Assembly: GCA_038143065.1 (NCBI GenBank)
Contig: JAYQLI010000012.1
Span: 64,001-128,000, forward strand
Length of the DNA: 64,000 bases
DNA from: Rhodospirillales bacterium
GTDB lineage: Bacteria > Pseudomonadota > Alphaproteobacteria > Bin95
Reading direction: 5' to 3'
Shown here one piece after another: positions 6,184 to 64,000 of the stretch. The notes under the pieces were generated by a model that saw only the letters and a program-made list of their open reading frames with translations, made no database searches and was not told the origin of the DNA. Position 1 is the stretch's first letter. Each line of letters starts with the position of its first letter. A program made the position numbers and the translations under genes.

Positions 6184-6277
6184 GCTTTTAATTTAAAGCG
6201 GCTCACTCGATAAAACTTGATTTGAGTGAGCCATGGTCGCACCCTGAGACAACATTTAATTGAGATAAGTTTGTAAA

Positions 6278-15161: not shown

Positions 15162-16099
15162 TTGGAACAAAGATACTGGCCTGTTATGGAAGCCCGAAAG
15201 TTAGCTATTTGTTTAATTTTGGTATCTACGCTTGGGTTCGCGTTGCAAGACACGGTTGTGAAACTCCTAGCTAATATTGGTTCTTTGTGGCAATTGATGT
15301 TTCTGCGAGCAGTAATTGTCGTTTTAATTCTAATAACTTGGGCAGTACTTAAAAACCATCTAAATTTGATAAGACCAGCGGGCTGGAAGTGGCCAATTAT
15401 TCGCGCCTTTTTAATGAGTTGTGCGTACACTTTTTTTTATGCATCACTTCCTTTTACTTCACTAGCACAAGCGGCATCATGTTTTTTTATGGGCCCCATT
15501 TTTACCTGCCTATTTGCCGCCATAATATTAAAGGAAAAAATTGGAAGATGGAGAGTATCCTCAATTTTTTTGGGATTTTTAGGGGTACTTTACATTATTC
15601 AGCCCGGCACTTCTGGTATGCAGGCCATTTTGTTTTTGCCAGTTTTAGCGGGGGCATCTTACGCACTTGCAGTTGTAATAACTCGAGGATATTGCGCAGA
15701 TCACCCTGCCTTATCATTAACAATTATTCATAATGCATTTTATGCATTGATTGGCGCACTAATGATCACGGTTATTCCAATTTTCCCAATTGAAATAGAC
15801 ACACGAGTTTCAAATCCATTTGTTTTATCTGGTTGGGTACAACCAACATCAATGATACTTTTTTGATTGGAATTACATCGATCACTCATATTGTTGCAAT
15901 GACCGCCTCTATACGAGCCTATCAGTCAACCGAAAGTAGCTTTGTTGCCCCTCTAGAATACACATATTTAGTTTTTGCTCTAATAATTGATTACACGGTT
16001 TGGCAAACACTTCCTAATGCGCAGGGACTAATTGGTGTAACATTGGTTATTGGCGCAGGGGTCATGATTGCAATTAGAGAAGGAATAGAAAAGAAATAA
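15162..16099 (+). CDS. DMT/EamA family transporter (frameshift in a T-run near 15860)
   Basis: About 10 TM segments, LKEKIGRWR, GFLGVLYIIQPG, VAPLEYTYLVFA. Confidence 0.9.
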
Positions 16100-22364: not shown

Positions 22365-23597
22365 TTATGAAAGTTTGGCCACGGCGTTAGCAATACGCGC
22401 ACAACCTTCTTTTAAATCCGCCATCGCATAGGCGTATGACAATCGAAAATGGCCGGACAAACCAAAAGCGCGCCCGGGCACAAGCGCAACGCCGGCACTG
22501 GCTAAGATGTATTCACAAAATTCGGCGTCAGTGGTTAGCTCGGTTCCATCTGGCGTTTTGAGGCCAAAGGTTTTCACACATGAGGGAAAAACATAAAACG
22601 CACCGCCCGGGGTGGGGCAATCAAGGCGCCGTGTTTTGTTCAATGCATCCACCACATAGTCTCGACGTTCTTTGAAAGACGCTAGGCGTTTGCTCAGAAC
22701 ATCTTGTGGCCCTGTAAGGGCAGCAATTGCGGCGGCCTGCGAAATTGAGCATGCTCCAGATGTGGATTGGCCCTGCACGCCCACCATTGTAGCGATAAGT
22801 TCACGCGGGCCAATGCCCCAGCCCAAACGCCAACCAGTCATGGCATAGGCTTTGGACACACCATTTACAATGAGCATGCGGGCCAAAAGGTCGGGCGCAA
22901 TTTCACGGAATGATGTGAAAGTATCATATGAGATATGTTGATAAATTTCATCTGCCAATATCCAAACATGCGGGTTTGCACGCAAAACATCAGCGAGAGC
23001 AGATAATTCTTGTGAAGAATATAACGCGCCAGACGGATTGCCAGGTGAATTCAGCAATAACCATTTTGTTTTTGATGTAATTGCGGCAGACAGTTGTGCT
23101 GGGGATAGCTTGAAATTTGTTTCGCCAGTGCATGCGACTGGCACTAAATTAGCCTGACAAAACGCTACTATGTCGGCGTATGATGTCCAATAAGGCGCAG
23201 GAACAATAACTTCGTCTCCTTGATTAAGCGTGGCCAGGAAAGCATTTGATAGCACCTGTTTCGCTCCTGTACAGACGATCACTTCGGTTTTGTCCGGTTT
23301 TCCGCTTGGGCCGGAAGCCGTGTGTTCTATAATGGCCTTCCTTAAAGAAGGTATGCCCTGCGTTGGTGGGTAAGTTGTTTGCCCTGCTAGCATAGCAGAA
23401 TGCGCGGCTTCGATGATATTCATTGGTGTTGGGAAATCTGGTTCGCCGGTACCAAAACTAAGAATATTCTCACCTTTAGCTTTGCGGGCTTGCACTGATT
23501 CTGAAATCCGAACGATTTCGGATAGTTTAACAGCTGCAGCGCGGTCAGATCTAGCAAACATAGGTGTTTTAATTTTTGTGTTCATTACGATACGCAA
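22365..23597 (-). CDS. PLP-dependent aminotransferase class I/II
   Basis: [32 protein letters not shown]. Confidence 0.93.
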
Positions 23598-23678
23598 TTA
23601 TTTTTGTTGATATGAAACAGATATCTTTATTAATATCGAATATTACGGACAAATTTTACGAAATTTTGGAATTAGATC

Positions 23679-24599
23679 ATGTCAAAATGGAATGATACTT
23701 CCATCCCGAGGAGGTTCCTACCTCCGTTTGCGTGGCTCGCCTCGTTCGAAGCAGTTGCAAGGCGCGGATCGGTCACAACTGCGGCCCATGAACTAAACCT
23801 TACGCAAGGCGCGGTCAGTCGCCATGTGCAAAAGCTGGAACAGCAAATCGGTGTGCAGTTGTTTGAACGGGATAAGCAGCGCCTGCATTTAACGGGGTCG
23901 GGTAAGACTTATGCAGAAGAGGTGCGCCAAGGCATAAGCCAAATAACCAACGCTGGCGTCAAATTGCATACTAACCCTAATGGGGGCGCGTTGAATTTAG
24001 CGGTGCTACCAGCATTCGGAACCCATTGGTTAGCGCCGCGTTTGGCGGATTTCATTGGCCAGTGTCCTGGCGTGACAGTCAATCTGTCAACGCGAACCCG
24101 TCCTTTTGACTTTTCGAACGAGAATTTTCACGCGGCCATACATTTTGGATTGAACGACTGGCCGGACGTGAACAGCTTGTTTTTAATGGAAGAAGAAGTA
24201 GTTGCCATTGCAGCACCCCTGATCGTGAAGCCAAGCGCCGCAAACGATATGGACGAGATTCTGAAAATGCCACTGTTGCATCTGCAGACACGGCCGGCAG
24301 CGTGGAGCCGTTGGTTTGCGCAACAAGATTTAGACGTGAAAAATATAACCGGCATTCAGTTTGACCAGTTTGCGACGATGATACAAGCAGTAGTTTCTGG
24401 CCTTGGCGCGGCAATTGTGCCCAAATATCTTGTCGAGAACGAGCTAAAACAAGGGAGACTGGTTGGGCTGGGCGGTTCTGCGACATCTGTAATTGGATCG
24501 TATTTTCTTGTATGGCCAGAACGCAGCGCACATCATCCCCCGGTTATGGCTTTCCAAAAGTGGATGAAATCCCTGGTAGGAGAAAACGCAATAATTTAA
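23679..24599 (+). CDS. LysR regulator (GcvA/GcdR-like), divergent from the gcdH operon
   Basis: HTH FEAVARRGSVTTAAHELNLTQGAVSR; LPAFGTHWLAPRL. Confidence 0.93.
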   Translation: MSKWNDTSIPRRFLPPFAWLASFEAVARRGSVTTAAHELNLTQGAVSRHVQKLEQQIGVQLFERDKQRLHLTGSGKTYAEEVRQGISQITNAGVKLHTNPNGGALNLAVLPAFGTHWLAPRLADFIGQCPGVTVNLSTRTRPFDFSNENFHAAIHFGLNDWPDVNSLFLMEEEVVAIAAPLIVKPSAANDMDEILKMPLLHLQTRPAAWSRWFAQQDLDVKNITGIQFDQFATMIQAVVSGLGAAIVPKYLVENELKQGRLVGLGGSATSVIGSYFLVWPERSAHHPPVMAFQKWMKSLVGENAII

Positions 24600-58335: not shown

Positions 58336-58575
58336 CTGCAAAAGGCCACTTCTTCCGCATGTCTGACATTCATGTTTGTAACCGCGAAGGTCCGCTCTGC
58401 CTGCCAAGAGCTAAACAGCAGCATGTTTTTTGCGCTCTTTGGTCTTTTTAAGTAGAGCTACAACACACATCCAAAGCAGAAACGGAACCATTTATGGACC
58501 AACTTTTAGAAAGTCATAAATTTCATGCAGGCTTTATACGGCAGTGCGCGCATTCTTATAACTTAACTGACTAAA

Positions 58576-59797
58576 CTATTTCTCCTCAACATTAGGCTGG
58601 CTTCCAATCGGCACAGTCGCACCTTGGATCAGTAGGTCATCGCCATTTTGACGGGGTTCTAATTCTTCCAAATCCCCGCACCTCGTTTGGTGTCTTAATG
58701 CCGTTCTGGATCGCGGTCGCATGAGCTTCCATGCGGGTTTTCAAATCGCCGCGCAGTAAGCTATCCACGTTAAAGCGAACGCTCATATCGCTCTCGCGGC
58801 CAAATAGCTTAAGGTTCATTTCCTGCTCGGCCTGCTCAATCCAGCGCCGCAGCGTATGCTTTACGAAATGCAAATCCTGCTGCTCAACATTGCTGAACGT
58901 GCCAGTCGATAAATCTTGCAGAAACACAGGCGGCAGTGAATATATCCGCGCTACTTGCTCAATGCAGAATTTCTGCAACTCTATCAGCTGCATTTCCTCT
59001 GGCGAAAACCCAATTGATTTTAGCTCATGGCCTGCAGGCAATGCCATGACAGGGCGACCCTCACGGGCCAGTTTGATCGTGGCACTGGCAACATCCTCTG
59101 ATGCGCGCTGAGCTGCTGCCCCACTGGCAAACGGGCCTTGCAGCGCCACTGGTGGAATGCCGCCAGATTGAAACGCTTTTGATCCGTAGCGCGATGATGC
59201 AATTGCCAGCCCAATGACGTCCTTGTTGGTCATGATTGGGCCGCGCACATCGATCATATTGTGTTTGAGCATAAAGCTCAGATCAATGATTTCTGTGGCT
59301 TCATAGATTGCCGTTTTGGTTCTGTAGCCTTTTGTCGGGTAGCCTTGCTCACTGGTCTTGGAGTAGACACTAAGATCGGTTGGATCGAGCGGCACCAAGT
59401 CGGTAATTACGCCCTGCCCGTTCCGCACAATCAGCGTAACAGATCGGCCACCCGTTAGTGTTTGCTCAAAGCTATATTTGCGCCACGCAAAGCTGCTCAG
59501 AGAGGGGTTTACGGCCCTATCAAGCCAAGTTCCCATTCCGTCAGTTACGCGCTCTGTGCCGCTCTGTGTGCGCCGCATAACCTCCAAAGGTAAGCTGGCT
59601 AAAGTGCCGCTGATAAAGTTGACCGCAGCCCAGATGGCTGGAACGCCCAACGCGCTTTCAACGTTAACGACAACGCCTGAGCTGGAGTTAAAATCGCCCC
59701 ACCCCATTAGGTGCAGGAAGTTATCGGCAGACACGGGGATATTAGGGTTTTCGAGTGACCTAACGTCGACTTTTTTAAAGTTGTCAAAAAGGCCCAT
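58576..59797 (-). CDS. HK97-family phage portal protein (C-terminal frameshift)
   Basis: ALGVPAIWAAVNFIS, QVARIYSLPP, TFSNVEQQ, LLRGDLKTR, TPNEVR. Confidence 0.93.
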
Positions 59798-59840
59798 GCT
59801 GTGGTTTCCTAGTCTTATCTTTTACAAGGGAGAGAACGAA

Positions 59841-60134
59841 ATGGCGAAGTATGCAGTTTATACAAAGTGGTCGTGGCCCAACGGCGTTCCAAGCGCAGAA
59901 ACGATGCAACAAAAGCATCGTGAGGTTAAATCAAACACAAAAGCTGAAGATATTATTTGGTTTAAGATTGACGAAAACACTCATCAGTCGGTTATCATTT
60001 ATTCCTCTGAGGCAGACGCGAAGGAAGAAAACGCAAGGCGTCAAGAATTGCGCAAACAAACAATTGAAGAAACTGGTCACTCAATGATTGAAGAAACTAT
60101 GGGACCAATTCTTTCTATTATGTCTGAAGTCTAA
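59841..60134 (+). CDS. Small hypothetical protein, antisense between portal and terL
   Basis: GGGGAG RBS, 97 aa from MAKYAVYTKW; stop codon overlaps the terL stop. Confidence 0.75.
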   Translation: MAKYAVYTKWSWPNGVPSAETMQQKHREVKSNTKAEDIIWFKIDENTHQSVIIYSSEADAKEENARRQELRKQTIEETGHSMIEETMGPILSIMSEV

Positions 60135-61647
60135 ACCGCCATTTTAAACTCAGGATCGTCCCACGGGCTTGTCGGCATTGTCATATCTTCTGCGCTCATT
60201 GATCCAAGAGCCATGGCCAGCGCCACCAGCCCATCAATCTTTGAGTAACTTTTTGACTTGTGCAGTTTGCGATTGCCCGCAGGATCGCTTTGCACAACCG
60301 CTCCAGCTGCGCACATGTTAAGGATCGGGTTGCCGCCGTGGCGCAGCTTGCGCTCTGCAACATGTTGCTCAACCTTATCGACCGCTGGCGACATATCGCG
60401 AAAGCCTTGACCAAACGGCTGCATTGGAACTTGTCGCTGCCGATCTTTTCTAGCTCGCGCCTAAAGTCATTGATGCGCCACCTGTCATAGGCGAGCAGCT
60501 GCAGCTGATATTCCTCAACTATCTCTGCCACCGTTCTGGCGATCACCTCTGGCTGGATAACTGGCCCCGCGATCGTGGTTAGATAACCTTGGTCGGCCCA
60601 TATATCCCACGGCACTTTTTCGCTCTGTGCCTTATCTCTCAGCCCGTCCTCTGGCAGCCAGAAATGCGGAACAACGTGTAGCTGGTCATCTTTTGGAAAT
60701 ACCAAAACCAGCGCCGTTAAATCTCGACTTGCCGAAAGATCGAGGCCAGCGAAACAAACATCACCAGCCTCGACAAGTGCAGGAGAACAACACGCCTCCC
60801 ATTCTGCCCGTGACAGAAACGGAGACTGAGCCTCGATCCGCTGATTAAGGAATAGCCAGCGGAAAGAGTTTGCTTTTGCCGGGAGCCTTTCAGCTTGCTT
60901 GGCAAAATCCTTCATATCTTGTTTTGAGCGAAACTTACCCAGTGCAGGGTTCGCTATTTTCCACGCTTTCTGGTCAGAAAGTTCGCAATCTTTCGGAGCC
61001 GAATAAACGTGCGAAACAATGCGCCGATCTTTTGCAGCCGCCGCGTCATCCAACCAAATGCTAAAGAGGTCAGCATCCGTGGCAGCTTGCGTAGAAATCG
61101 CGATAAGTAACGGGTTAGCATGTGCGCCCTGTGCAGTTTCGACTGCTTCAATAAACGCATCGTGTGGGCCGCGTACTTGCCCCACTTCATCTAAGATGGC
61201 TAAGACAGGAGAAAGCCCGTGCGCGGTCCCACTCTCTGCGCTTATGGCTTTAAATTCAACATTACAAATCAAACCCACCAGCATCTTCTGCGATGGAACG
61301 ATCCGCACAATCTTTGACAGATCAGGCGACAGTCTGACCATTTTTTCAGCCAGTTTAAAAACCAAGCTGGCCTGATCGCGTGATCTAGCACCACTGATGA
61401 TCTGGCTGTTTTGCCTTGCTTCTGGCCCAACCAAATGCGCTAGCAATATGGCTGCGATCAGCGCAGACTTGCCATTCTTTCTCGCCACCGACAGATAAGC
61501 GCGACTGGTGCCGTGCGGGTTATCAAAGACATCCAAAATAAACTTGCGCTGAAACTTCATCAGCTTGATTGGCTGCCCCACCTGAGCGCCTTCTGGAATT
61601 AGGCAATAATGCTCAATAAATGCGCATATTTTTTCGCCGCGTGTCAT
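60131..61647 (-). CDS. terL: Terminase large subunit (frameshift near 60425)
   Basis: VARKNGKS, ILDEVG, ISTQ, ANPALG, GLDLS...DLTA, YDRW, KIDGLVALAMA. Confidence 0.95.
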
Positions 61648-61732
61648 GTTGATATTATCTTTCGTGGCGTAATATTTGACAGAAACGGATCAAACTTTTC
61701 GATAGCTGTAGCCATAACTAGGGAGAGAAAAA

Positions 61733-62117
61733 ATGTCGGATATTATGAACATTGCAGCGGATCGTGATCGACGTCAATAATGAATGGAGCTACGAGGGGG
61801 CGAGACTTATACTGGGGATTTACAATCGCAATATTCAGTAATTTAGTTACGCTATTTATCATTTCAGCAGGGTGGAGACTTACCTTCAAATGCTATTTGT
61901 AATGGTCGTGGCAACGTTTATTTTTGTCATGATTAATTCTTTTGATTGCATGGATGACCTTAAGGCAAATGCTGATGATATGGATGCAGAGGAAGCTGCT
62001 TCAAACTTTGGAGCAAAGTTCCTTAAAGCACCTTGGGGCATGTTTAAGACTGTTTTAACGATTTTGTTCGGAGCTATCGCACTTACACAGCTTGATGCCA
62101 TTTGGGGCATCTTTTGA
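61733..62117 (+). CDS. Small membrane protein, antisense between terL and terS (likely frameshifted 5' part)
   Basis: GGGAG RBS and ATG at 61733; hydrophobic 81-aa ORF 61872-62117; stop abuts the terS stop. Confidence 0.65.
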
Positions 62118-62587
62118 TTAATGAGCGGGCTGAGCGATTAGCCCCTCAACTCCAACATCCTTAAAGCCGCTCTAGCATCGCCCTCAACCTTAGCCGATCC
62201 ATTGATTGTGCGCGGATCAGAGGCCGTTTGGTTTAGCGACATTGATCGAATAACCGCCAGCTGACGCCGCTCAAGTGTATCTATGACTGACAGCAGCGGA
62301 TTTGGTATCGGAGTGCCGCGCTTATTTTTAACCATCATACCCATAGCATCCAGCTCAATCTGAGCAGCTCGGATGTCCGCTTCCATCTTCACGATTTTCG
62401 CCAAGAAGATTAGGTCCATATCCCGCCAGTCTGACCTCGCGCGGGCGCGGGTGAACTGGTGCCAAATTATCAGCTCAGCCTCGCTGCGCAGCTCCACTCC
62501 AGCAGGCAATGGAATGCGATCATTAATGGCACCAACAAATCCTGCCACCGCAGAGGTCGCGCTGTTTTTGTCAGATCGTTTTTTCAT
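62118..62587 (-). CDS. Terminase small subunit (P27-like)
   Basis: PLPAG, W...D...LA, NKRGTPIPNPLL, upstream of terL; alternative frame ends GLIAQPAH* at 62118. Confidence 0.75.
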
Positions 62588-62689
62588 AATTCTGTTACGA
62601 CCTCTCGTTATCCAAAGACTACCTGTACCCTTTGTACTCACCCGCTTTTTGATCTCATTCAAAGAGCGGGTTTTTTTCGTAAACGCAAA

Positions 62690-62752
62690 GAAAGTTTGAT
62701 GTGGACGCCGGTTTCTTAAACGTAGCTTTTAGCCTTTGACCCACCCCCCCGT
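62690..62752 (-). other. Putative cos/packaging region
   Basis: - strand GGGGGGGTGGGTCAAA...ACCGGCGTCC between HNH and terS, the usual position and look in HK97-like modules. Confidence 0.4.
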
Positions 62753-62768
62753 TGTCGTACATAATTGC

Positions 62769-63110
62769 ATGATGAAAAACTTTATGGCTATTCACGACGC
62801 ACACAGTGATGCGGCAAGAGAAGAGTATAAATCTTACTTTAAAAGTATTTACTCAAGCGAAACGACACATGGCGAGTGGGCCAAGAGTAGTGTTGGAGAA
62901 TTTGCAACGGCGCACCAAGTTTGGATGGGCGCAGAGAGTGATTTCTTTTGCACACACTTTTTAGCCAGCAGCAAAGACAACGTTTTTAAGCAAATTGAGC
63001 TGTGGGGCATGTCCAGATTTTTCACCACAATGGTCATTGAGACAGATCGATTTACTTCTGCTTTGATGCCACCTGACCAAAGAATTGATCAATCCTATTT
63101 TAACGATTGA
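62769..63110 (+). CDS. Small hypothetical protein, antisense between terS and the orphan HNH 3' end
   Basis: 113-aa ORF MMKNFMAIHDAHSD...; stop overlaps the orphan HNH tail. Confidence 0.7.
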   Translation: MMKNFMAIHDAHSDAAREEYKSYFKSIYSSETTHGEWAKSSVGEFATAHQVWMGAESDFFCTHFLASSKDNVFKQIELWGMSRFFTTMVIETDRFTSALMPPDQRIDQSYFND

Positions 63111-63115
63111 CGGAC

Positions 63116-63144
63116 GGATGCTTTGGGTCGCTAGGCCACCCATC
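63116..63144 (-). repeat. 29-bp direct repeat, orphan copy of the HNH 3' end
   Basis: GGATGCTTTGGGTCGCTAGGCCACCCATC, 28/29 identical to 63954-63982. Confidence 0.95.
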
Positions 63145-63317
63145 GTCTCCGGTATTCAGAAAAGTTTTACGCTGCGTTAAGATCACTGAGACCCGCTATA
63201 GGTACTGCTGACAAAGCGTAATTTTAAAAATACTTAGCGTCTGCCCGACGGTTTGAATAAGCCCACCCAATGGAAGAATGGATCACAAACTGACAAAGTC
63301 ACAAATATCTTAGCTAA

Positions 63318-63824
63318 TTAAAACATATCACCATCGTAGTGATCTGGATGATACTTCTTCATATACCAACGAAAAAACCAGAGGATAAACCAAGAGCAGA
63401 CCATACCTAGAAATATTTTAGGGTTGGTCTCGTATCCTCTTTCCAGCGACTTGTCATTTATTCTAAGCATAACCCCAACGGCAAACATATTCCCTAGAAT
63501 AACAAGCATTGTTCCACTCATTGTGAACATGAAAGTGAAGATAAAACCATCAAGCTTTCTAAAAAACAAACGTGCGTACGTCACAAGCTTTGTATCAGAC
63601 GCAAGTACATCTAACGGCTGCGATTGCTTCTGCGTTTTCCTTTTTCTGTAGGGGTAAATAATTATCACCAGTATAGATAATACAACCGCGATAGATATGA
63701 TGGTGATACTTGCCTCGGGGAATTTGCCGTACAGTACAATCACCACCGGAAATGCTAGGACCCAAATTAAAATAAGGCCCCGCAGGCTAGCTATATAATT
63801 CTTGTGGTTTTTATTCTCACTCAT
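63318..63824 (-). CDS. AT-rich four-TM hypothetical protein (cargo)
   Basis: 168 aa with four hydrophobic segments, between the direct repeats. Confidence 0.7.
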   Translation of the reverse strand: MSENKNHKNYIASLRGLILIWVLAFPVVIVLYGKFPEASITIISIAVVLSILVIIIYPYRKRKTQKQSQPLDVLASDTKLVTYARLFFRKLDGFIFTFMFTMSGTMLVILGNMFAVGVMLRINDKSLERGYETNPKIFLGMVCSWFILWFFRWYMKKYHPDHYDGDMF

Positions 63825-63949
63825 GACAACAAAAGCTTACTCGGTTTTTTGTTTTTTCAGTGTGCCTCGCCAGAGAAGCCTCATTTATCTGTTATAATTC
63901 ACGGCCTCAGCTTAAGACAGATTGGTTTATCAAAAAAGTTAGAATTTAC

Positions 63950-64000
63950 TCATGGGTGCTTTGGGTCGCTAGGCCACCCATCAGCTCCAATAGTCGTGTC
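63950..64000 (-). CDS. 3' end of a phage HNH endonuclease (runs off the window)
   Basis: ...DTTIGADGWPSDPKHP*, a typical C-terminus of packaging-associated HNH proteins, upstream of terS. Confidence 0.65.
   Translation of the reverse strand, partial: DTTIGADGWPSDPKHP

Follow-up and report, generated by a model that had tools for sequence, protein, structure and literature searches.

The window analysed here, a stretch of 64,000 nucleotides from a Rhodospirillales bacterium (assembly GCA_038143065.1, contig JAYQLI010000012.1, positions 64,001 to 128,000), ends in a cluster of phage genes for DNA packaging, in which a portal gene, the genes for the large and small terminases (terL and terS) and the 3' end of an HNH endonuclease gene are separated by small genes of a different kind (Table 1). 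An earlier note, made from the sequence alone, had placed portal, terL and terS on the minus strand, which was confirmed by the listing of open reading frames (ORFs) and by family matches, and had described one small plus-strand gene in each gap. Three such genes are indeed seen (slot1 between portal and terL, slot2 between terL and terS, and slot3 between terS and HNH), although slot2 is disrupted and a fourth inserted gene lies in sense orientation in the HNH-terS interval, slightly past the end position given in the earlier note. The HNH tail that had been reported next to the end of slot3 (63110) is also present, as an orphan copy of the 3' end (63116-63150), but the real HNH gene starts at 63950; its orthologue in a closely related locus (L024; related loci are numbered with L and contigs of the assembly with C) is matched by the PHROG HNH families. 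The inserted genes, hereafter cassettes, have a guanine plus cytosine (GC) content of 39.4-41.8% (40.5% in slot1 and 39.4% in the fourth gene) versus 51.5-52.6% in the packaging genes, and because of this contrast, and because the same architecture recurs in relatives, they are not a chance feature of the locus.

Table 1. Features of the packaging region at the end of the window (positions are those of the window).
Feature	Position	Strand	Evidence and remarks
Portal gene, full length	58576..59797	-	PF04860, E 2e-74; phrog_12
Leader of slot1	59798..59840	+	Shine-Dalgarno AAGGGAGAG, read from the sequence
Slot1, 97-aa cassette gene	59841..60134	+	206 homologous clusters; dN/dS; confident model
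terL, HK97-type large terminase	60131..61647	-	PF03354, E 3e-16; PF20441, E 6e-24 and 5e-12
Conserved leader of the terS-terL slot	61648..61733	+	TTGACA box at 61676-61681; Shine-Dalgarno AGGGAGAG ahead of the cassette ATG
Slot2, remnant of a cassette for a small membrane protein of ~127 aa	61734..62117	+	Alignment with the intact version in L029
terS 3'-end element, last 13 terS codons (ancestral frame)	62118..62157		Hairpin GGGCTGA/TTAGCCC; copied behind stacked cassettes
terS, small terminase	62118..62662	-	phrog_5601, E 9e-19
Intrinsic terminator, 13-bp stem followed by a T-run	62640..62680	+	Scan; just upstream of terS
Slot3, cassette gene of 113 aa (or of 124 aa if started at TTG 62736)	62769..63110	+	Homologues; profile; confident model
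Orphan copy of the HNH 3' end, 35 nt, encoding ...DGWPSDPKHP	63116..63150	-	Direct repeat of 63954-63988, 91% identity
Fourth inserted gene, 168-aa membrane protein, sense orientation	63318..63824	-	ORF between both copies of the HNH 3' end
Real HNH endonuclease gene, 3' end	63950..64000	-	Continues past the window to C12:128411; PF01844, E 1.5e-6; 153-aa ORF

Each cassette stops within a few bases of the packaging gene upstream, whose 3' end is conserved. The TAA of slot1 overlaps the TAG of terL within the four nucleotides CTAA at 60131-60134, as had been read before, and the abutment of slot2 and terS at 62117/62118, also described in the earlier note, is right in the terS frame of all relatives, which reads ...KDVGVEGLIAQPAH* and ends at 62118. 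The ORF listed for terS stops early, at 62138, since one G is absent from a G-run near 62158, so that the abutment belongs to the ancestral frame. Slot3, in turn, stops 5 nt short of the orphan HNH copy. At the other end, the cassettes are preceded by leaders that are conserved regardless of the gene they serve: the leader of slot1, which on the opposite strand is the ribosome-binding region of portal, is kept where relatives have other cassettes (93-100% identity in L025, L026, L028, L032 and L040), and that of the terS-terL slot, with its TTGACA box and its AGGGAGAG-type Shine-Dalgarno sequence, fronts different cassettes in L029, L032, L025, L024, L021 and in the arrays of contigs C5 and C7 described below. 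The start of terS is likely the ATG at 62587, the relatives beginning with MKKRSDKNS, and the match of terS to the Pfam family Terminase_4 (22.6 bits) remains under the cut-off of 24.7.

The window proteins were mapped by tblastn on 84 loci, which comprise 4 loci of bacterial genomes (from Paracoccaceae, Rhodobacteraceae and an uncultured alphaproteobacterium) and 80 loci retained from 205 IMG/VR matches, and the counts given for each junction cover the loci that could be scored at that junction. The intact TerL orthologue is 53.6% identical to the TerL of HK97 (over 99% of its length) and to that of HK022, and 55.8% identical to the TerL of AP-16-3, a close relative of phage 16-3. The distant relatives are ordinary HK97-like phages, in which portal is followed by protease, major capsid and adaptor genes; one of the loci (L064) is without inserted genes and another (L036) has its slots filled. 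Gap lengths are bimodal at all three junctions. At terS-terL, 10 of the 53 scored loci are empty (130 nt or less) and 43 are filled (276-5372 nt), with 33 distinct filled states; at terL-portal, 49 of 74 are empty (gaps of 3-78 nt) and the 25 filled ones show 15 distinct states; at HNH-terS, 14 of 19 are filled, in 11 distinct states, and five are empty. The homologues tabulated in this way do not carry an invariant set of three genes. The three junctions HNH-terS, terS-terL and terL-portal are thus read as hot spots for accessory genes (morons), as part of an explanation that we consider probable as a whole.

The gap ORFs, collected by a greedy longest-ORF rule with a minimum of 60 aa, number 145 and fall into 63 families, each of the 63 confined to one type of junction. 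Among the small families (<200 aa), 37 are antisense and 13 sense to the packaging genes (25 and 6, respectively, after filtering for a Shine-Dalgarno sequence), and among the large ones 12 are sense and a single one antisense. The small antisense families include DUF1330, DUF3303, DUF3764, GYD and SnoaL-like proteins, most of them being without a Pfam family, and the large sense genes, found in distant phages, code for a ParB-DNA methyltransferase (20 loci), DUF7220 proteins, glycine-rich proteins and an HNH_3 endonuclease. Contrary to the earlier note, the slots are not strictly single-gene: up to three cassettes are stacked in one slot, and distant relatives have large sense-strand genes at the same place. 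The ParB-N6/N4 DNA methyltransferase, accompanied by DUF7220 in the 20 loci, is DNA-modification cargo of the terS-terL hot spot, and the same gap holds a TET/JBP-type oxygenase with TET-associated glycosyltransferases in L045, L057 and L086.

DNA-modification genes in the terS-terL slot of distant relatives are typical anti-restriction cargo, and they favour the idea that the cassettes are genes for counter-defence or for takeover of the host, expressed early in the lytic cycle from host-type promoters, and not cargo serving the lysogen. On the other side, none of the small cassettes matched a PHROG family, none of the 42 cassettes compared with the PADLOC models matched (a weak point, as PADLOC covers defence proteins and not anti-defence proteins), and NCBIfam gave two weak matches only. 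In addition, arrays of cassettes outlast the phage genes in the host assembly (C5, C7 and C48), and this persistence after the loss of the phage genes suggests a benefit to the host. A role in counter-defence or takeover is conceivable but doubtful.

The content of the slots changes between close relatives at the limits of the ORFs. The backbone is 85-98% identical between the window and its close relatives (segment identities), and for slot1, L028, L032, L034 and L040 have the same gene (98-99.7%), L025 and L026 an allele with 82% identity, and L024 an unrelated gene. Slot2 and slot3 are common, among the close relatives, only to the window and L029, and the fourth inserted gene is present in L025 and L029 and missing or replaced in L024, L027, L028 and L040. 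Contigs from metagenomes join the flanks of the slots directly, 59810 to 60125 (the limits of slot1), 61693 to 62117 (slot2), 62733 to 63115 (slot3) and 62748 to 63972 (slot3 plus the membrane gene). The view that conserved packaging genes flank exchangeable slots, already put forward in the earlier note, is consequently supported at the sequence level by gap tables, segment identities and joints at ORF limits.

In slots with two or three cassettes, a separate copy of the 3' end of the packaging gene upstream stands behind every cassette. Repeats of the terS 3' element were found in L024, L031 (3 copies), L032, L021, C5 and C7, those of a 3' fragment of terL in L020, L096, L097, L100, L101 and L103, and the HNH 3' end occurs twice in 5 of the 10 related loci that hold this end, as it does in the window. 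These scars vary in length (about 27-70 nt), and the units of L021, C5 and C7 also carry 5' fragments of terL; the corresponding joint between the terS 3' end and the terL 5' region (62157 to 61437/61440) is found in environmental contigs as well. On the plus strand, the hairpin of the terS element has a folding energy of -20.2 kcal/mol (z -1.84), and when the three stop-to-stop junctions were folded, only this element and, on the minus strand, the HNH tail (z -1.85) were mildly stable, whereas the slot1/terL junction was not. In L024 and L032, nothing but a scar and a Shine-Dalgarno sequence stands ahead of the stacked cassettes, which have no promoter of their own.

Such stacks resemble integron cassettes, as they are one-way arrays of small promoterless ORFs, each with its own Shine-Dalgarno sequence and followed by a hairpin-containing repeat, and the junctions of environmental arrays cluster at 62157-62159, which would fit site-specific, integron-like capture at the hairpin of the terS end. 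However, no attC-type site is found; the repeated sequence is itself coding, being the 3' end of an essential gene, it differs from junction to junction (HNH, terS or terL tail), the length retained is variable, and some units include terL 5' fragments. The cassette families are also bound to their slots, and the hairpin motif has 5 matches in the assembly at up to 5 mismatches, all of them at cassette loci. Neither in the window nor in L024 does the module contain or adjoin a recombinase gene, although no genome-wide search for IntI was made. Capture of this type is therefore very improbable, and the variable retained lengths together with the absence of a recombinase point instead to homologous exchange through the conserved flanks and stacking at repeated gene ends.

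The process described so far that comes closest to this stacking is the shuffling by PeSL motifs of T4-type phages, short conserved composite motifs of a stop codon, a stem-loop and a Shine-Dalgarno sequence with start codon that lie on either side of small orphan ORFs and seem to direct the insertion, loss and replacement of ORFs at acceptable intergenic sites (PMC2839356). Both systems have a repeated motif on the two sides of exchangeable ORFs (here, copies of gene 3' ends behind and Shine-Dalgarno leaders ahead), whereas here the phage is a temperate siphophage and the repeat is coding sequence, taken from the 3' end of an essential packaging gene, there is no strong early promoter in each motif and the stacked units are mostly without a promoter of their own.

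The proteins encoded in the slots were also analysed. Slot1 has 206 homologous protein clusters with 68-97% identity, nearly all of them of 97 residues, and its dN/dS of 0.12-0.24 against five relatives shows that it is under purifying selection, so that this ORF of the earlier note turned out to be well conserved. Structure prediction, which had been proposed as a check, gave confident models for slot1 (predicted local distance difference test, pLDDT, 91) and slot3 (pLDDT 94). The model of slot1 has a dimeric alpha+beta barrel fold (ABM/Dabb-like), with Foldseek matches to NosA, YdhR and SnoaB (TM 0.5-0.67, E from 5e-4); its profile found no match among the PDB sequences at E up to 1, and in a protein atlas the nearest named cluster was ABM in 25% of the members (score 0.93), which is a lead only. 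Slot3 has 3 close homologues and its profile finds 143 representative clusters; 6 of 38 members resemble PF14026 (SCO4226-like) below the cut-off, with a best E of 3e-4, and the ferredoxin-like alpha+beta model has weak PDB matches (E about 1e-3). The three slot genes had been called unrelated to each other, and slot1 and slot3 do lack sequence similarity, but both are predicted to adopt a ferredoxin-like alpha+beta fold. The intact slot2 of L029 has 127 codons and is 96.8% identical to the window copy, which contains a premature TAA and indels at 61777, 61866 and 61899, so listed as an 81-aa ORF (61872-62117) that is only the C-terminal part of the gene. These differences are also present in metagenome contigs, and a frameshifted homologue exists in C48. 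Most of the cassette products are either tiny proteins of the alpha+beta barrel or NTF2-like type or small membrane proteins.

The broken slot2 and the frame breaks of terL, portal and terS are what could be expected if the plus-strand ORFs were chance frames or debris of a decaying prophage. This explanation is refuted for slot1 by its purifying selection and constant length, and for slot3 by its 143 clusters and confident fold, and the complete phages L036, L030 and L035 carry the same kind of backward cassettes. It is thus extremely improbable as an account of the locus, and slot1 and slot3 are real genes.

Several features bear on the expression of the cassettes. A promoter-like sequence, TTGACC-18-CATAAT, lies ahead of slot3 (62736-62765), in a scan that as a whole was at chance level: over 58400-64000, promoters and terminators were no more frequent than in shuffled sequences (6 versus 7.3 and 7 versus 6.3, respectively). 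Plus-strand terminators were located at 62094-62111 and 62640-62680. The second position is occupied by the same hairpin in L029, by one with stem changes in L027, and by unrelated hairpins, each followed by a T-run, in L021, L028 and L025. Plus-strand transcripts that began at the terS-terL cassette and crossed terS in antisense would end at this position; this is the only hint toward the antisense silencing conjectured in the earlier note. Directly after this hairpin position, relatives have a conserved CGTAAACGCAAAGAAAGTTTGAT, and the cos site of the phage family may lie nearby; HNH proteins have a role in cos cleavage. Three RNA-library runs and one DNA run were aligned to the window, all as contigs. 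Contigs of the RNA libraries, which do not show transcription, are identical to the window over slot3 (62800-63103 and 62793-63036) and cover slot1 with a single mismatch (59370-60022). The cassettes are probably transcribed from promoters of their own and not as part of the late operon.

The window copy is a defective fragment, neither a working operon nor a working phage. Head, tail and lysis genes are all missing from it, and homologues of the prohead protease and the capsid protein are found nowhere in the assembly. Homology with the relatives stops at 58577, in the portal stop codon, and the next gene codes for a LuxR/MalT regulator; on the other side, an IS6-type element adjoins a DUF6362-like ORF upstream of HNH, as also happens in L020. 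Portal has an extra C within a C-run at 58674 (compared with 5 of 5 relatives and with metagenome contigs), which moves its last ~33 codons to a 48-aa ORF (58576-58722), and the ATPase and nuclease domains of TerL lie in two frames owing to a 2-nt insertion (CT) at 60430, which is extra with respect to 7 of 7 relatives and to contigs from both the DNA and the RNA libraries. The breaks at 58674 and ~62158 are in homopolymers, a pattern expected of errors in long-read assemblies, and the frame breaks of terL, portal and terS may be assembly errors. Just past the end of portal, a repeat of ~90-140 nt (58339-58475) has copies with 74-83% identity at C2:15324-15460, C50:6769-6859 and C12:37142-37221, and environmental contigs break within it, at 58383 and 58415.

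The closest relatives of the window copy (L024, L028, L032 and L034) are all without head and tail genes, and they share a deletion endpoint at codon ~17-20 of the protease gene, their homology to L036 ending at 6213-6221 of that locus; protease and an HK97-fold major capsid protein are present in L036, L064, L035, L037, L041 and L061. In the capsid-less copies, the differences in terL and portal are almost all synonymous, with omega values of 0.03-0.06 for terL and 0.02-0.11 for portal at dS of about 0.16-0.25 (0.17-0.25 for terL). The 24.1-kb provirus record behind L024 (G037) encodes a P4-type integrase (domains PF13356, PF22022 and PF00589), a DUF3631 protein, a primase (phrog_906), the packaging genes, a holin and an endolysin, and no capsid gene was matched in it. 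This gene set, the shared endpoint and the low omega would suit a working capsid-less phage satellite that borrows the head and tail proteins of a helper, with the slots as its cargo bays and the window copy as a truncated descendant. Against it, many copies are truncated at differing points (L020, L021, L022, L025, L040, C41, C5, C7 and C11), and L061, a complete-type phage with protease and capsid genes, has a terL 96-99% identical to that of the window, so low omega could persist in capsid-less copies through recombination with working phages of this kind. We know of no satellite family with terminase and portal genes but no capsid gene, which also counts against this explanation, and we hold it to be unlikely.

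Like the capsid-forming phage-inducible chromosomal islands (cf-PICI), the close relatives of the window copy are small and integrated, have a P4-type integrase, a primase, HNH, terS, terL and portal, and are without tail genes, but they lack the capsid and protease genes. Integrase and replication genes accompany the element in G037 and are absent from the window copy. The module itself is that of HK97-type cos phages, with the same TerL domains, a PF04860 portal, terS before terL and HNH before terS, except that in the window no prohead protease and major capsid genes follow portal.

Further partial copies of the element and arrays of cassettes were found elsewhere in the assembly (C5, C7, C41, C11 and C48). 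C5:15971-23752 and C7:18638-26436 (L104 and L105) are a duplicated segment of 7.8 kb (95% identity) with about ten small cassette genes (SnoaL-like, ABM-like and slot3-like), three scar units joining the terS 3' end to the terL 5' region, a remnant of HNH and a frameshifted terS; the segment of C5 is bounded by 127-nt direct repeats (15736-15862 and 23570-23695). In C48:12698-14103 (L107:3698-5103), four cassette genes, two of them frameshifted, form one operon between IS6/IS240 transposase fragments, uninterrupted by packaging genes or scars, and their order is that of the phage slots (terL-portal type, terS-terL type and HNH-terS type). A rearranged array also appears at L031:3120-3897, where three terS 3' elements lie downstream of terL and slot1 on a contig without a portal match. 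A bolder version of the satellite idea, in which the last codons of HNH, terS and terL act as docking repeats for the exchange and stacking of backward genes, and the capsid-less lineage, with terminase and portal kept under strong purifying selection, is a new satellite whose chief payload, the cassettes, would persist as IS6-linked arrays in host replicons, is considered quite unlikely.

The element was also looked for in related genomes. The family and order sets comprise 37 genomes from 3 genera and lack the element: in the 36 genomes other than the present one, terL matches (E<=1e-10) were found in 6, one of them close (74%, at a contig end), and slot1 was not found. The closest copies of the element are in Paracoccaceae/Rhodobacteraceae. 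The small contigs of the assembly have tetranucleotide correlations of 0.6-0.92 with its 2.86-Mb contig, whose own chunks reach at least 0.93, and they may be plasmid or accessory DNA, or the bin may be mixed.

The best explanation for these observations, and a probable one, is that the locus is a defective fragment of a temperate HK97-type phage with hot-spot slots, whose cargo changes by exchange through the flanks and by stacking. We infer the route of recombination, the timing of expression and the reason for the backward orientation as follows. The locus (DUF6362-like ORF, HNH, terS, terL and portal) would derive from a family of temperate HK97-type siphophages that appears to be common in marine Rhodobacteraceae-like bacteria. 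In the clade of the window, the slots hold small low-GC genes on the opposite strand, with a short conserved Shine-Dalgarno leader and a stop-to-stop end. Related phages and resident prophage remnants may trade these cassettes through homologous recombination in their conserved flanks, and this would make replacement ORF-precise and slot-specific. New cassettes could be stacked by recombination at the copies of packaging-gene 3' ends, in a PeSL-like manner, the orphan gene tails being the scars of these events, and the backward orientation would keep the cassettes from reading into the late genes.

Several points weigh against this interpretation. The recombination route is deduced from its end products, and the variation in scar length together with the terL 5' fragments implies that part of the stacking is illegitimate recombination. 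The verdict of decay is based mainly on missing genes, and the strong purifying selection on terL and portal in the capsid-less close relatives is more in keeping with a functional element than with a mere remnant. Since all 84 loci stem from a single tblastn-seeded search and are redundant, the counts are not independent, and with the greedy ORF rule several of the small sense ORFs are probably shadows. The sigma-70 scan found 6 sites when 7.3 were expected from shuffled sequence, and, as the aligned runs are contigs, strand and level cannot be read from them and gaps in their coverage carry no information.

Temperate phages are well known to carry accessory slots, both as morons and as the hot spots of P2 and P4, and slots between terL and portal are themselves a common and familiar arrangement. 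Morons are extra genes, independently transcribed, that lie between genes adjacent in relatives in temperate phages of the HK97/lambda type. The cassettes agree with them in being present or absent between adjacent late genes, in a GC gap of ~11 points, in coding for small non-virion proteins and in their HK97-type backbone, and differ from them in that three successive packaging junctions are filled, the orientation is almost uniformly backward, the genes meet stop-to-stop without a spacer and copies of the neighbour's 3' end are kept as scars. In P2-like phages, hot spots occupy fixed positions with variable cargo, one of them beside portal (10.1101/2024.10.15.618418). The P2/P4 hot spots are, as here, fixed sites between conserved genes whose cargo varies among relatives, but they hold multi-gene defence systems and not single tiny genes (0 of 42 with a match to defence models), and here the three slots lie within one operon. 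In a literature search, no account was found of three successive filled junctions in one packaging operon, of stop-to-stop abutment, of the 3' end of a neighbour as a repeated border, or of cassettes surviving as arrays after the loss of the phage genes, and these four features are taken as new.

This locus represents an unusually clean case of cargo being added inside an essential and tightly packed operon without breaking it: insertion takes place only at gene ends, the borders track the ORFs and the scars record the stacking. If the lineage without capsid genes were functional, it would be a new type of satellite. Dozens of small protein families, the majority with no Pfam family, make up the cassette pool that passes between marine phages and the replicons of hosts, and possible roles in phage exclusion, counter-defence or stress deserve attention. 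The finding does not overturn the biology of morons and hot spots, but extends it.

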